Assembly: GCA_013239625.1 (NCBI GenBank)
Contig: MU053652.1
Coordinates: 9,002,077 to 9,066,076 of the forward strand
Reading direction: 5' to 3'
Source: Lama guanicoe
Lineage: Eukaryota
Length of the DNA stretch: 64,000 nt
The translations under genes and the position numbers were made by a program. The notes under the pieces were generated by a model, which saw only the letters and a program-made list of their open reading frames with translations, ran no database searches and had not been told where the DNA came from. Shown here in pieces: positions 11,985-61,829 of this stretch (position 1 is its first letter; every line of letters begins with the position of its first letter).

Positions 11985-12106
11985 TCTTTTTTTTAAACTT
12001 TTTTTTGGAGGGGTAGGTAATTAGGTTGGAGGAGGTACTGGGGATTGAACCCAGGACCTCGTGCATGTTAAGCATGCGTTCTACCACTTGAACTATACTC
12101 TCCCCC
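11985..12106 (-). mobile_element. tRNA-derived SINE (camelid Vic-1-like)
   Basis: Reverse complement GGGGGAGAGTATAGTTCAAGTGGTAGAACGCATGCTTAACATGCACGAGGTCCTGGGTTCAATCCCC with A/B boxes; imperfect TSD AAAA(A/G)GTACA(A)TTTTTA. Confidence 0.85.
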
Positions 12107-16699: not shown

Positions 16700-18995
16700 T
16701 TCCAAAAAATTTTGTTGATTTTTCTCTATTGTTTGTCTATTTGCTATTGTACGGATTTCTATTCTTTGTATTGTTTTCTTTCTTCCATTCTTTTGGGTTT
16801 TATTTGCTCTTCTTACAAAATAATATCTTAAGGTGGAAGCTTAAACCATTTATTTTACACGTTTTGGTTCTACATAGGCATTTAGACCAGTGATTTTTCT
16901 CAAAGCACTACTTTTTTTGCTCTATCTCACAAATTTTGATATGCTAGTATTTTATTATCTTTTCATTACTTTTCACTACAAAATATTTTCCAATTTTGGG
17001 TATTGTTTTCCATTTTACTCATGGATTATTTAGAAGTGTATGTTGCTTAAGAAGTGTGTCCCAAATATTAGGGGTTTTCTAGGTGTTTTGTTTTTATTGA
17101 TTTCTAATCTAAAACCATCATGGTTAGAGAAATAATTGTATTTTTTTCATTTTAAATGATTGACTTGTTTTATGGTGCAGTATATGATTTATCTTGGCAA
17201 ATGGTCCGTATGCACTTGAAAGGAATGTGTAACATGAAATTTTGATTGTGGTTTTCTCCCAGTGTTACTTAAATAAAGTTGGTTGATAATGTCATTCAGA
17301 TATTTTATCCTCTTTAGTGATTTTGGAGGAGGGGGTTACTTCTTCTACCAAATACTGAGAGAATCTCCAACTGTGAAAATCTCCAACTATCCATGTGGGT
17401 TTGTTTCCTTTTCCCTCCTCATGCTACTCTCTGTATTTTATTCCCTCCCCTGCTCTTTGCTGCCTTATTGTTGATGACGTGAGTCATTTCCAGTCCCCTA
17501 TTTTATCTCCTGGATTATCTTTTTAGCTGTATCTCTGAGTTTATCTCATCACAACATGTCTACAAATAATATTCTATTACCTCATGAAAGCTGTAATAAT
17601 CTTAAAACAATACAAGTGATTTTATTCCTTCTCCTCACTTCTGTTCTCTTATTCTTACATATTTCACTTCTGTGTAGTCTATAAACCCCATAGCTGTACA
17701 AACAGGTGATGGAGGGCCGTGTCATCTTTGGGAACACAGCGATCAGCTCCATGGGAGACATACCTGTCTCCAGAGTATTTCAGAATCCAATGGGCTGCGT
17801 GAAGAACTGCCCCCTGATTGACTTGGAGGTGGATGGTGGATCTGAGCAGGCTGGGACTCCGGTGCCCTCGTTACTGCATCAGGACCTGGCAGCTTTAGGA
17901 ATCAGTGATGCCCCAGTTACCAGCAAGGTTGCCGGTCAGAATTGCTGTCAGGAAAAGAGGAATCCCACTGCCAGCACACTGCCAGGTGGAGGTGTTCAGA
18001 GCCCTTCTGCAGAAAGGAACTTGCTGGATCTCCTCTCCCCACAGCCGTCTCCAGGACGTCTGAATTATATTCCACAGAAAAGTATCCCCAAGGAAGTGCC
18101 ACCGGGTACTAAGTCCTCTCCAGGTTGGTCCTGGGAGGCTGGCCCATCGACTTCTTCCCCGTCTTCCCAGAACACACCTCTGGCTCAAGTGTTTGTCCCT
18201 TTGGAGTCCGTTAAGCCCAGCAGCCTGCCTCCTATTATCGTGTATGACTGGAACGGGTTCAGAATCCTGCTCCACTTTTCCCAGACGGTGGCCCCTGGCC
18301 ACCCAGAGGTGCAGGTGTTACTGCTGACCATGATGAGCACCGCCACCCAGCCTGTGTGGGACATCATGTTTCAAGTGGCTGTGCCAAAGTCAATGAGAGT
18401 GAAGCTGCAGCCAGCGTCCAGCTCCGAGCTTCCTGCTTTCAGTCCTTTGTTGCCTCCAGCTGTGATCTCTCAGATGCTGCTGCTCGACAATCCACACAAA
18501 GAACCCATTCTTTTTGTTTTTCATAATCAATAGTCTTTTAAATAAAATTAAAAAAAATTATATATATAATGATATATCTTGGGTTTTTTCCCTTCTTCCT
18601 ATCCAGTCTTCCGTTTGATGGTATTTCCCTTCAGCTTAATTAACTTCCTTTACTGTTTCTTGTAAAGGTCTTTTGGAAACAAAACCGCTCGGGTTGTCAC
18701 TAATGAGAATGTCCTTAATTCATCTTCATTTTTGAAGGGCAATTTTGCTGGAAATGAGATTCTAGGTTAGGAATTTTTTTCTTATAGTATTTTTTCATTC
18801 TCTTTTGGTCTTTTCCACTAGCATGTTTGTTGTTTCTGATGAGAATTAAGCCATATCCATATCAGTTTTCTTCTGTGTATAATGTGCTTTTTCTCTTCTG
18901 GCTGCTTTTTTAGATCTTCTCTTCCTCTTTATTTTTCAGCAGTTTTACAATGTTGTGTGTATGTGTTTCGTACTCCCCTTGTGGTTTGCTGAGCC
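16700..18995 (-). mobile_element. Old LINE-1 (L1MC-like), antisense, interrupted by the GGA2 insert
   Basis: L1 antisense motifs on both sides of the insert (CTCACAAATTTTGATATG; TCATCTTCATTTTTGAAGGGCAATTTTGCTGG). Confidence 0.75.
17694..18510 (+). pseudogene. GGA2: Processed internal fragment of GGA2 (end of GAT, hinge, most of GAE/ear domain); frame open 17706-18533
   Basis: Translation LYKQVMEGRVIFGN...CPLIDLEVD...NLLDLLS...PLAQVFVPLESVKPSSLPP...FQVAVPKSMRVKLQPASS...LLLDNPHKEPI closely follows the recalled GGA2 C-terminal half; no introns; L1 on both sides. Confidence 0.93.
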
Positions 18996-24512: not shown

Positions 24513-25071
24513 TGTTACCAGACCTCCCAAGACGGTCCCCAGCATGGGTCCTCCTGCCCAGTGTCTCTCTCTCTCTCCAATAGAAGGAGACCAAGGTCGG
24601 TCCAAAGGAAAGCTTTATTCTCTGATCAAAGAATGAAGAGCTGCGAGCTTGCGCTCTAGAGTACGGGTCCCCCGGACCCCTGCAGTGGGCGGGGCTGTTT
24701 TACAGGAGGCTGGTCAGCCGGGAGGAGGGAGGGGCGGAGTGCTCCTGGGTTCTGCGCAGGCGTAATTGTGCTGGCTCCCGACTGCAGCGCCGGGTGCAGC
24801 GGCTCTGCGCTCAGCCCGCTGCCGCCATGCTGACCTGCGCGGCTCTTCTGCACGCTGCCCGCAGAGCTGGCGCGTCTGGTGCGGCCCTGTTCGCGCTAGG
24901 AGCTCGGGTCTGAAGGGCTAGGAGCAAGGCCTCTGCTCGCGCTACCCCCGGACCCAGGAAAGCTAGACTAAGCACAAAGGAAAAGAGGGAAAAAAAAAGG
25001 TTAGACTTTATTTTGTTACCCAGACTCTATTTTTATTTTCCAGGAATTGTTAGTGGGCTTTGCTGGTGACA
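24513..25071 (-). mobile_element. Young CpG-rich solo LTR (ERV1-like, 4-bp TSD)
   Basis: Termini TGTTACCAG...CTGGTGACA (8/9 inverted match); AAAA on both flanks; minus-strand AATAAA at 24614-24619; ~29 CpGs in 24640-24950. Confidence 0.8.
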
Positions 25072-27140: not shown

Positions 27141-27256
27141 TGCACAAAACACCAGTTTTGTTTCTGTTTTCGTTTTGGGAGGTACTGGGAAATGAACTCA
27201 GGACCTCATGCATGCTAAGCATGCACTCTACCACTGAGCAATACCCCTCCCCCTAC
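27141..27256 (-). mobile_element. tRNA-derived SINE (camelid Vic-1-like) with TSD
   Basis: GGAGGTACTGGGAAATGAACTCAGGACCTCATGCATGCTAAGCATGCACTCTACCACTGAGCAATACCCCTCCCC; AGTAGCCATCC on both flanks. Confidence 0.85.
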
Positions 27257-27999: not shown

Positions 28000-30100
28000 T
28001 TTATTTTAGCTAGCTTTGTGTAACCATCTTTATATATTCTCATTTTAGAACTTTTTCTGAATGAATGACATTGTTTTAGATGTATCTCACATACAATATA
28101 TAATTTTTAAAATTTACCAAATATAATCTTTTTCTTTTGGCAAATGAATTTACACTATTTATATTTGTTAATATAGCAAATGTATTGTTTTTTATTTCTT
28201 TCTATCATGTTAATACCTCATAGTCTTTCTTTTGCTACACGAATTTTTTTGATATGTGCAGATTTTTCTTTTTATAATTTGGACAATTTTTTTGGTCTAT
28301 TTTAAAACTTATACTTATCTTTTCAACTTTATGTATTATACCTAATCTTTTTTTTTTAGCTACTTTATACTATTCCTTGTAGAAGGAAATAAGAAAGTCA
28401 GCAATTTACACTTTCTCTTAACTATTTCCTTATCTTTTGTCTTCTAAATTTTAATTAACATTTTTATTTTCAGTCACTTCAGTAGTTCCTTTTATATTTT
28501 TATGTAGTTAAATCTTGACTTACCAAAATGTAATAAAAAATTTTTATTCACTAAAAAGAGGTGCTAAAAGTATAGAACTTATACTTATTCCCGTTTTCCT
28601 TCTAAATTTTTGCTTGTTGTATTATTTTTATAGTGCCAAAACTTAAAGCCTTCATTTTCTGCAATTATATTTGCCATAGTTGTTTTTCTTAGTTCTATGT
28701 TCAGCGCTCAGAATGCACTGTTTGACCCCATATGTTATGTACAATTGTGGTCTTAAATTTGCTTTATGGTTATAACATTTTTTTTGTTACTAATTTCTAA
28801 CGTAAGTGCATCGTGGTCAGAAAATGTGGCCTGAGTGATGCCAATATTTTACCTTTCTTGAGGCTTTCTTTATGGTTTGTGGTCAATTTTTACTTGTTTC
28901 TGTGTGCTGGACATGAATATATATTGTCTATTTTTTAGGTGGCAGATTCTGTATACATCTAGCCTGTTGCATTGTTCAACTATTTTCCGTCTGCTGGTCT
29001 TTAATAATAGAGAGAGATATCTTGAAATCTCCATCTCTGCTGGTGATTTGTCCATGTCTTACTGTGTTTTAATTACTTTTTTCTTATTTATTTTGAAGAT
29101 ATTTTACAAGGTATATAAAAAGTTAAAATTTTAAAATAAACCATTTGACTAATTGAACTTTTCATCTTTATATAGTGATCTTTTTAGAAAAGAAATCACA
29201 AATAAAATTTTTTGTCTTACGGTCTATGTTGTTTGATATTAAAATTTCCCCTCCTAGTATAGTATGAAATCTTTTACTGGTTCTTACCATTTAACTTTGT
29301 GCTTTTTATTTGCCTAAGTTACTTTTCGTTTTTTCTTTTTCTTTCTTTTTTGCTTATTTGGTTTTTGCTCATTGCATATTTTTTCTCTACTGGTTTGAAA
29401 GTTATACACCGTATTTCTATTTTATTGAGGGCAATTCTTGAAATTGTACCATTTAGATTTAATAAAATCCAAAATTAATTGACTGCTAATCCCCAATCCA
29501 GACAAGGATCTTGGCACATCTTAATTCATATCACTACTTCTTTCGGTTTATCTGCAATCAGTTTTTTAAAGTCTTCATTTCTTTTTGTGTTCACACCTTC
29601 TTTCTGGACTTACCTTGTTTCTTCCTAAAGTCCATCTTTAGGATGTGTCTTAGTGGAGCTCCATTGCTATGTACTCAGTGTTCCTTTATCTTCCCACAAA
29701 GATGACACCAGGCCCATACATACATATAAGAAAATTTTTGTTCTTAAAAGATAGTTTTGATGGCTCTAGAATTCTAGTTGTTAGTTTGTTTGGTTTTTTT
29801 AGTGAACTCTAAATGTCTTATTTTACTTCTCTGGCAACAGTGGACACTAATGTAGCTGCTATTGGTCTTTCTATTAGTCCTTTCTCTCCAGCTGTTTTAA
29901 AAATGTAAAGTTTTAAATTGAAAAATGGTTGCTTCAATCTTCCTGATCTCCAATTTTATTATAATATTTCTATATCTCTTTAATTTCTTTTCCTATTTTC
30001 CATATTCCTGTCTCTTTGTGTTGCATTATGGTAATTTTTGGTTCTTCAATTTGCTTTCAGTGATATTTAACATACCACTAAGGTGGTATTATTATTATTA
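28000..30100 (-). mobile_element. Highly degenerate LINE-1 fragments
   Basis: Very T-rich; GTGGTCAGAAAATGTGGCCTG and CTTGAAATCTCCATCTCTGCTGGTGATTTGTCC motifs. Confidence 0.55.
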
Positions 30101-45158: not shown

Positions 45159-45653
45159 TGTAAAGTAAAATTCACATTTTATGGCAAGACACGAAAAATT
45201 TAAACAAACAAAAACACGTCTCTGCCCTTTGGCCTCCTCTCTCTACCCCAGCCTCCTCTCCCCCCGCACTGTGCACTGTGTGTCTGCACTGTGCATCCAC
45301 CCCGCCTCCCCCATCGGCAGGAGTACCTGCCCAACCGTGCAGGCCAACATCCTCCCAGCAGCAGCAGGACAGCTCCTTACAAGATAACATTCCTTCTGGA
45401 GCCTGTGAGGAGCCACGATGACCCACCACTTTGTATTTAAAGACCTGGATTGTGTAAACGGTCGAAAATACATCATTTAAAGTATAGCCTTCTGTCTCAA
45501 AAAAAAAGCTTACATAACTGTGCCTTGACTTCTAAAGGGCAGAGCGGTTCTCAGAGCTCTCTGAGATGCTGTTCCCAGGTTATAATCCTCAATTTGACTA
45601 AAATAAAATTTCCCATTTCTTTCTTAGATCGACTGATTAATTTTTCACCGACA
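45159..45653 (+). mobile_element. Solo LTR (ERV1-like), copy A, nested in an L1 tail
   Basis: TG...CA termini; GTTT/ATTT near-TSD; AATAAA at ~45602; homologous to 48883-49332. Confidence 0.8.
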
Positions 45654-48882: not shown

Positions 48883-49332
48883 TGTTGATGAAAAATTAAT
48901 CAGTTGATCTGAAAAAAAAAAAGAAAAAAATTTTATTCAAGGCAAATTGAGGATTTTAACCTGGAAATAGCATCCCAGAAGCCAAGGCACAGTTGTGTAA
49001 GTTTTCTGAGACAGAAGGCTGTACTTTAAATGGCTGAACTTTAAATGTTTTTGACAATTTACACGATCTAGATCTGTAGATACAGAAGTGGTGGGTCATA
49101 GTAACCTCTTAGAGGATCAAGAGGGAATGTTATCTTGTAAGGAGTTGTCTTGTTGGTGCTGGGAGAATGTTGCTCTTTGTGGTTGAGCAGGTATGTCTGC
49201 CGATGAGGATGTGTGGTTGGTGCATAGTGCAGATACACAGTGCAGAGTGGAGCGGGGGGGAGGAGACCAAAGGGCAGATACAATCTTTTATGTTTTTCTT
49301 ATCTTGCCATAAAGTATGAATTTTATTTCACA
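48883..49332 (-). mobile_element. Solo LTR of the same family, copy B
   Basis: Reverse complement aligns to 45159-45653 (e.g. CTCCTTACAAGATAACATTCC, ATGACCCACCACTT). Confidence 0.8.
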
Positions 49333-60194: not shown

Positions 60195-60399
60195 AGGATG
60201 ATTCATTGGATGTAGAGTCTCAGCTGGATTCTAAAACTACTCTAAGAACTGTCATCTGGCTTCACAGGCTTGTTATGAGGCTGTGAAAAGTGTATATCGC
60301 TAAACAAGAGTGATACACGTAAGCTCGAAACTTTCTTTTTCCCAGGAGGTACACACATCTGTTGAGCGTGTAGTGTTCGGACTATTTTCGGAGTCCTTC
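60195..60399 (-). repeat. Right arm of the inverted duplication
   Basis: See left arm. Confidence 0.9.
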
Positions 60400-61120
60400 G
60401 GCTCCGCCTGTCTTCTGCTACGGACAGTTACAAACAACCTTCCTGGGAGAACGTGATGCCCTCAGCTAACGACGTAGGTCAGAGACCTAAAAAGCAGAAG
60501 GATTTTTGGGGAGGGGCAAGGGCAGGGCATGACCCAGTACCCAGCAGCGCCGCCGATTGGCGGACGGGAAGGTTGTTCCCTCAGAGCAGCCGCTGATTGG
60601 CTGCGGAGGAAGAGCCATGACGTCCTGAGAAGTTGAGCAAGCACCTCCTCCTCCCGGCTCTCATCCCAATTTCTGCGGGGAGTTCGGAGCCTGCCCTGCC
60701 CAGAACCGGGAACAAAGAGGCAGCGGGGACTGGACAAGGTGAGGAGGGGTGCCCCGAGGGGGCTGAGCAGGTGGGCGCTGGGCTCAGCCTGTAAGATGAG
60801 TTTGGAGATCGCTGGCAGGTACTTGCTGTCCCCCGGGAGGGGCCGCGAGCTCTGCCTCCTCCTCCCTGCACCGCGGGAGACCCGGGAACTCCGCGTACAC
60901 CGGCCGTTGCCGGGAAGACTGGGGAAGAGGGTGGCGAGCGTTTGGGCCTCCTCGCCAGACCTCCCTTCCGAGCGAGCGTTTCCCTGCGGGCGGAGGATAG
61001 AGGGTAGGGGGCTGTTAGCGCGGCTCCGGGATTTCTGTATAGGAAGGAGGAGTGGCAATTTGCATTTCTTTTCTTTTTTTCTTTTTTGGCGGGGTCAGAG
61101 GTGGGGGCGGTTGCCGGGGA
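60400..61120 (+). promoter_or_regulatory. CpG-island promoter and probable first exon of an unidentified + strand gene
   Basis: GC/CpG-rich; inverted CCAAT boxes (ATTGG at 60556-60560 and 60596-60600); CRE half-site TGACG at 60618; donor AAG|gtgagg at 60738/60739, with alternatives at 60791 and 60819. Confidence 0.7.
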
Positions 61121-61829
61121 GTAAAGGATTGGTCTTGAAGGTGTAGAACAAACCACCTGTTGACTGTTGGGCTGCATCCGTATATAGATGGGCTGACTCC
61201 AGGGGGTGGTTGATGGAGATTGTAGGCGGCACCCCCCACCCCACCCCAGGTTCTTTTGGCACAGTTATTGGTTGACCTTTCCAGCCCTGGCTTGCTTTAC
61301 CAGACTCGGATCACGAACTTCCTCATCCTGCCCGTATGGAACTGGCCCTTCTCTCTGAGATGGAGACAGCTCCGCACCCGTCCCGCCCACTGAAGCTGCC
61401 GCTCCCAGTCCATTCTCTAACAGAGACAGGAGAAGTGAGAAAGCGGTGTGCCTCGGGGGTCAGCGTCCCCCGAACTCTAAATGTCTTGACTACTCCTGGA
61501 AGAAATGTAGTTTTCAGGCACTGATTTCAGGAGATTTGGGAGTGGGTGGGGTATGGGGAGAGGGAGAGAGAGTGTTTAGTAACTTGAATAAAGATGAACA
61601 TTTTTTGATATTGTGGGTTGTCAGTTACCAGAATGTGGAGAGGATGTACCAGTGATTACACCCACCTAACTGCACAGGACTGAAGAATCGTTGACTTTGA
61701 CATGTGATTTTCATATACTTTATACTGAAACAAAAACAAAAACAAAAAACCCCAATACACTTGATGTGACATGTGGCTGTGCTCACCTTAGAGGAGTGGG
61801 CAGGCTTGCAGCCTTTTTCTTAACATTTA

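Follow-up and report, generated by a model that had tools for sequence, protein, structure and literature searches.

An apparent tailless copy of spliced GGA2 mRNA within an ancient L1, with internal priming as its candidate route

Inside the remains of an old L1, the window (the whole 64-kb stretch of DNA analyzed here) carries an antisense piece of GGA2 coding sequence that lacks a tail, is truncated at both ends, and is still open to translation. The copy is real-looking, appears to have evolved neutrally, and points to the Camelus lineage. With moderate confidence, we interpret it as a dead processed pseudogene fragment that arose in Old World camels by target-primed reverse transcription begun within the mRNA.

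Codon-by-codon alignment gave an insert of 817 to 818 nt, in agreement with a previous sequence-only reading of this DNA, which had described an intronless GGA2 piece of ~817 bp that starts and stops mid-CDS. From 17694 to 18509, every codon corresponds to GGA2 (LYKQV...KEPI), with no stops and no frameshifts. The closest match was the alpaca protein (P0001, XP_072798887.1; E 7e-167), with which 262 of 272 residues are identical. Used as a tblastn query against the window, this protein returned a single ungapped stretch of 272 codons and no further GGA2 piece in the 64 kb. The two possible lengths follow from the edges: the codon preceding the match is TAG, so that G17693 can at most be the last base of L313, and C18510 is compatible with the start of R586 (a CGN codon), with a misfit at the next base. 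The GC content of the insert is 0.55, compared to 0.36 and 0.32 in its flanks. Its coding content begins in the end of GAT, continues through the hinge, and takes in roughly three quarters of the GAE ear domain, and its adaptin ear match covers PF02883 model positions 1 to 87 of 111, with the last 24 absent.

Exon boundaries were placed from block gain and loss among 142 aligned GGA2 proteins, which are gene models from other mammals, rather than from the parent locus. Breakpoints recurred near residues 340 (9 proteins), 381 (5), 391 (8), 435 (8), 489 (7), 545 (3), and 582 (8); an eighth may lie near 472 (3 proteins). The insert runs uninterrupted across every one of them. Because the stretch is ungapped across about seven such boundaries, the insert appears to be a copy of spliced RNA, and the protein isoforms from which the boundaries were drawn point to a reverse-transcribed fragment of GGA2 message, or intronless processed pseudogene. 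The mRNA-derived fragment without poly(A) or TSD hallmarks that had been proposed from the letters alone is upheld to this extent. The last junction is predicted to fall after K582, between 18500 and 18501.

Residues that vary among camelids suggest where the template came from. I330 of the insert is common to only 2 of 137 aligned proteins, those of alpaca and wild camel. At G361, P369, and V370 the insert has the residues of Camelus ferus (P0113) rather than those of alpaca, in a comparison that did not include GGA2 from the window species and where P0113 lacks residues 392 to 472. Agreement at these three sites argues for an Old World camel mRNA as the template, and the insertion would then post-date the camel/llama split, in the Old World lineage, with the copy absent from New World camelids. 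That split is placed at 11 to 25 million years ago, and the divergence of dromedary and Bactrian camels at 5 to 8 million years ago, in the dating portion of a published account (PMC4884201).

Six private amino acid changes distinguish the insert: V333M, T346M, R499W, G512V, K558E, and M566L, with the altered bases at 17751, 17791, 18249, 18289, 18426, and 18450, respectively. By codon, V333M, T346M, and R499W are CpG-type, and R499W, G512V, and K558E fall on conserved GAE residues. Neither W499 nor V512 occurs in any of 142 aligned proteins, E558 is found in 0 of 139 and M346 in 0 of 128, and the two remaining residues are seen in 1 of 135 (M333) and 11 of 139 (L566). A neutral simulation with a tenfold CpG rate, fitted to the six changes, gave a best fit at ~0.75% divergence (plausible range, 0.3 to 1.5%), which suggests that the copy is old and fixed. 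At the best-fitting divergence the frame stays open in ~62% of neutral runs, so an open frame needs no selection; selection on the frame was rejected on this ground and because private changes occupy conserved GAE residues. Judged at the protein level and relative to the retrieved orthologues, the copy appears to have decayed neutrally as genomic DNA and has no evident function. An age of a few million years would follow from a background mutation rate.

Features of the GGA2 insert and of the surrounding L1, in window coordinates
Feature	Position	Strand	Details or basis
Processed GGA2 fragment	17693..18510	+	Codons 314-585 of 618, first base of 586, possibly last of 313
Open frame, 279 codons, first ATG 17709	17694..18533	+	Runs 7 codons into host L1; TAG 18531-18533
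Left host flank, candidate imperfect target duplication	17681..17692	+	Resemblance to insert end; weak endonuclease-like site
Most A-rich 10-mer, candidate internal priming site	18494..18503	+	7/10 A
Sole 10 nt from the last coding exon (predicted), including the stretch like the left flank	18501..18510	+	Inferred junction
Host L1 AATAAA and ATTAAA shortly past the read-through stop; likely incidental	18541..18552	+	Sequence
Decayed L1 ORF1 C-terminal domain fragment	18704..18796	-	Pfam PF17490 and ORF1p structures
Decayed L1 ORF2 endonuclease fragment (~human ORF2p 185-225)	17127..17252	-	tblastn via retrieved relatives

With a slash marking the border of the insert, the left junction reads ...TATAAACCCCATA/G CTG TAC and the right junction reads ...CACAAA GAA CCC ATT C/TTTTTG. 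There is no 3'UTR or A-tail; T-rich host bases follow the insert directly, and the nearest A-run is host sequence ~40 nt away. The longest exact repeat present at both junctions is the 5-mer CCCAT (17687-91 and 18504-08), and no exact TSD of ~7 to 20 bp is found there. All three of these absences (3'UTR, A-tail, and clean TSD) had been reported on first inspection. Within 60 nt of each junction, no exact direct repeat is longer than the two 6-mers TAGTCT and ATTCTT; neither lies at both junctions, and they were rejected as TSDs.

The left flank also resembles the end of the insert, with 17684-17691 matching 18502-18508 at 7 of 8 positions with one gap, CCCAT being exact. A likeness between AACCCCAT and the insert end AACCCAT was part of the sequence-only reading, and it is real and modestly above chance (3 to 34 of ~804 positions). 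As the 3' end was moved through the insert, the observed match was reached at just 3 of 804 positions (18508-18510, the true end) with a gap cost of 1 to 1.5, and with a gap cost of 2 or more it was tied by 15 to 34 of 804 to 807 positions, or about 2 to 4%; with the insert end held fixed, 9 of 1,155 host positions matched equally well. The chance level comes to ~0.4 to 4%, in a test that was devised after the match had been noticed. Largely independent of this resemblance is the position of the 3' end itself, which falls in a 10-mer that ties for the highest A content in the insert (2 of 809 windows). The endonuclease-like site AT/AAAC at ~17682, with two mismatches to TT/AAAA, carries no weight, because sites with two or fewer mismatches lie 8 to 20 nt upstream of 454 of 1,090 host positions. 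Likewise, an RNA fold left the last 24 nt of the insert unpaired (z -0.4), and this predicted single-strandedness is uninformative because the mRNA downstream was absent from the fold. The right-hand copy of the repeat still encodes E-P-I-R, which are the letters of the mRNA.

On the right of the insert, the C-terminal domain of a minus-strand L1 ORF1 was recognized by PF17490 (E 3e-6) and by human ORF1p structures (E 4.5e-4 to 1.2e-3). On the left, a minus-strand segment was matched in tblastn by 9 of 11 retrieved proteins as L1 ORF2 endonuclease; P0148, from this set, matches human ORF2p 153-238 (E 4e-26), and P0145 and P0150 were spurious. ORF2 had escaped direct searches with phmmer and Pfam, in which the left flank was translated through its stops. 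The L1 is heavily broken by stops and frameshifts. The order and strand of the pieces are those of one ancient L1 with the GGA2 copy antisense within it, so that the earlier claim of a host L1 resuming on both sides survives for order and strand, with base-level continuity across the junction doubtful: the ORF2 anchor places the start of ORF2 at ~17801, past the left junction, and at least ~110 bp of that start must be missing somewhere between the ORF1 and ORF2 anchors.

The host L1 region is not repeated elsewhere in the window. A two-motif scan for L1 relatives spanning the site returned 23 metagenome-contig and 46 viral-contig loci, and none of the 69 aligned past the motif, apart from a single low-complexity AT match to the flanks; because their flanks were unalignable beyond the motif, these loci were treated as chance. 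The flanks had zero matches among plasmids, and the motif was absent from the one supplementary file of PMC9252281 in which it was looked for; the papers listed as having it in their full text were unrelated. Two other L1 features were seen: a 16-bp tandem duplication within the host endonuclease region (17354-17388) and a second, more decayed ORF2 endonuclease fragment on the minus strand at 28774-28980.

No other coding gene was found in the window, where 0 of 245 ORFs of at least 62 residues reached the Pfam cut-off, in a list that excludes ORFs near 16.6 to 16.85 kb and within the insert. Elsewhere, a CpG-rich element of ~558 bp with TG...CA ends and AAAA on both sides (24514-25071) looks like a young solo LTR. 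Two tRNA-derived SINE copies, 84% alike, lie at 12027-12102 and 27176-27249 on the minus strand, which we take to be the camelid SINE, and inverted copies of an old ~500-bp repeat, 70% alike, lie at 45159-45653 and 48883-49332. A CpG island at 60250-61250 contains two CCAAT boxes in reverse orientation (GATTGG) as well as a short frame that opens with ATG and closes at a donor-like AG/GTAC near 60820; it is probably the promoter and first exon of a gene. Upstream of the insert, the antisense L1 at 17620-17693 has a pyrimidine tract and two AGs, and with the AATAAA and ATTAAA motifs at 18531-18552 any transcription of the region might allow the fragment to be captured as a terminal exon.

The model that best accounts for the copy begins with a nick in the ancient antisense L1, probably made by the L1 endonuclease at the weak AT/AAAC site near 17682. 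The freed 3' end of the lower strand, complementary to AAACCCCAT, may then have paired with the A-rich ...ACAAAGAACCCAU... just beyond the last exon junction of the spliced GGA2 mRNA, a step suggested by the resemblance of the two sequences. Reverse transcription, presumably by the L1 enzyme, would have continued for ~810 nt and halted at codon 313/314 as an ordinary 5' truncation. Joining may have left the short or imperfect duplication in which CCCAT is exact, along with 0 to 1 nt of overlap and, at the 5' junction, roughly one added base. Neutral drift since that time would have brought the copy, judged from its protein-level changes, to roughly the 0.75% divergence of the simulation.

Internal priming on an A-rich site fits the data somewhat better than patching of a double-strand break. 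It is favored by the location of the 3' end in the top A-rich 10-mer, as tailless copies prefer A-rich internal sites according to the relevant part of the literature on them (PMC5322556), and by the likeness of the left flank to the insert end, which a staggered cut would be expected to leave and for which a plain break patch gives no reason. The L1 reverse transcriptase also tolerates imperfect primers (PMC4014453). Of the sequence-only reading, which had offered both routes, the A-rich end and flank match thus lend this one more support; the rarity that it implied is not supported, since tailless copies are known. Several points argue the other way. The right-hand copy has the letters of the mRNA, and simple target priming leaves those of the target; without assuming that the primer was trimmed or that the sequence changed later, only a 5-bp exact duplication is left, and trans-mobilized mRNA copies are described as rarely having short TSDs (PMC2912911). 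The flank resemblance is weaker under stricter scoring (15 to 34 of 804 to 807), and, given that the host L1 is short of at least ~110 bp between its anchors, part of the target may have been deleted.

Target deletion is what would be expected if GGA2 mRNA or cDNA patched a germline double-strand break independently of the endonuclease, by blunt joining or 1 to 3 nt of microhomology and with target loss, an event also termed a class 2 templated insertion, RT-product-mediated repair, or a non-classical L1-type insertion. We regard this as a serious contender, although on present evidence a doubtful one. It agrees with the truncation at both ends, the absence of poly(A) and a clean TSD, the host L1 bases missing somewhere between the anchors, and the T-rich right flank, where a duplicated endonuclease site should give an A-rich start. 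Here the consensus of old mammalian L1 families is longer by ~14 bases, a difference that would favor a deletion. In size and form, the insert is like the 797-nt spliced Pcnt patch joined with 3-bp microhomology in the mouse zygote experiments of PMC4516963, and target deletions accompanied 18 of 21 non-classical L1 insertions in the set of PMC1920257. A break patch leaves unexplained, however, why the left flank best matches the 3' end of the insert (3 to 34 of ~804), and by itself gives no reason for an end in the most A-rich stretch. The mRNA letters at the junction and the matching left flank would both also arise if a canonical retrocopy, primed on poly(A) and flanked by a TSD of ~10 bp, had later lost its 3' part by deletion between the internal AACCCAT and the right TSD copy, and post-insertion deletion is named as a mimic in PMC1920257 and PMC12350158. 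This sequence of events is unlikely, as it needs a second event ending within a few bases of the TSD in the short time allowed by ~0.75% divergence, and no A-rich end point would be expected from it.

The remaining explanations are much less credible. Contaminating cDNA or a mis-join in the assembly could be suspected, as the exact read-through ORF is absent from a collection of 15 billion proteins and no retrieved protein has two or more of the private residues; six private changes, three of them CpG-type and four unseen in the aligned orthologues, are the pattern of methylated genomic DNA and not of modern cDNA, and the L1 keeps its order and strand across the site, making an artifact very improbable. 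We give similarly little credence to recruitment of the fragment as a terminal exon or small gene with a truncated GAE domain, through the antisense L1 pyrimidine tract and AG together with AATAAA. The 279-codon open frame, an AG that abuts its first codon, and an AATAAA motif 8 nt past the stop would suit such a role, but the frame is open by chance in most neutral simulations, three private changes hit conserved GAE residues, the ear domain is incomplete, and the window shows no host coding gene. Finally, L1 on either side could suggest an L1-mRNA-L1 chimera, and template switching is discussed as a route to L1 chimeras in part of one account (PMC11838501). The insert is antisense to the L1, and an L1 riddled with stops and frameshifts is not contemporaneous with an intact insert that appears to post-date the camel/llama split; template switching during copying of the host L1 was rejected on orientation and age, and we consider it scarcely conceivable.

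The kind of copy described here is already known and common, and both candidate routes are published. Where surveyed, doubly truncated retrocopies without tails make up a tenth or more of the total, and the GGA2 copy alone means little. Its modest value lies in its use as a clean test case, being young, intact, and predicted to be absent from New World camelids, for separating internally primed L1 insertion from break patching, two processes not easily distinguished in mRNA copies. Old World camels should also gain a presence/absence marker from it. A more tentative possibility is that the site preserves a natural, long-fixed germline break in a camel ancestor, patched by an 818-nt internal piece of a spliced housekeeping mRNA with no L1 endonuclease cut and with target loss. 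Were this so, it would provide a datable wild counterpart, outside primates and rodents, to the multi-exon mRNA patches at CRISPR breaks in mouse zygotes.

Among the literature matches listed, we found no description of this GGA2 copy, and its closest relatives are classes of insertion defined elsewhere. The poly(A) 3' end and exact ~7- to 20-bp TSD of canonical L1 retrocopies are lacking. Tailless retropseudogenes, including mRNA copies shortened at the 5' end as well as the 3' end, are treated as an L1 by-product in the sections of Noll et al. (2015) that deal with them (PMC5322556), with Schmitz et al. (2004) cited there for the same class. Those sections describe priming within adenosine-rich, single-stranded regions that have complementarity to the target, spanning the terminal 2 to 18 nt of the RNA, and report mRNA forms truncated at both ends in numbers (PMC5322556). 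Like these therian elements, the GGA2 copy is RNA-derived and 3' truncated without oligo(A), has an A-rich internal end point, and may sit in a target that resembles the terminal bases of the RNA. In contrast, the curated examples have clear TSDs and come mostly from small RNAs or histone mRNAs, and the GGA2 copy comes from a spliced polyadenylated mRNA, has only 5 bp of exact duplication, and is a poor fit to TT/WAAAAWW, a logo preference and not a strict rule.

Surveys of other genomes show how ordinary the missing hallmarks are. In the portions of the Feng and Li study consulted for these figures (10.1101/2020.06.07.139212), human polymorphic retrocopies have poly(A) in 64% of cases if inserted and 50% if deleted, and TSDs in 60 to 72%, and truncation at both ends is seen in 12 to 16% of one great-ape set. 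Their retrocopies resemble the GGA2 copy in being protein-coding, without poly(A), and often truncated in the last exon or at both ends, and some have no TSD; the data are from primates (human and great-ape long-read assemblies), and the authors leave the cause of missing TSDs open. Non-canonical insertions account for 15.7% of human mobile-element insertions in one tally (PMC12350158), and L1 also inserts at induced breaks in the experiments summarized in PMC9237045. The non-classical L1 insertions of Sen et al. (2007) share with the GGA2 copy a 3' truncation and the absence of a tail and clear TSD, and differ in having an L1 RNA template, mostly verified target deletions, and TSD absence as an entry criterion (PMC1920257).

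Doubly truncated patches of spliced mRNA at breaks are the last point of comparison. Double truncation and the absence of poly(A) place the GGA2 copy near the class 2 templated insertions, and its antisense orientation and age, far younger than the host L1, set it apart from L1/mRNA template-switch chimeras. The RT-product-mediated break repair described in the mouse zygote results of Ono et al. (2015) yielded a cDNA close to the GGA2 copy in length (Pcnt, 797 nt), likewise internal, drawn from several exons, and truncated at either end, and poly(A) and a clean TSD are absent in both cases (PMC4516963). The Pcnt event was CRISPR-induced, whereas the GGA2 copy is natural and old. As presented in the parts of these reports that define them, the Ono events and the class 2 insertions of Onozawa and Aplan (2016; PMC5110952) are recognized through a known pre-insertion site, against which they show microhomology or a microdeletion; the GGA2 copy has been compared with them through its present-day junctions.
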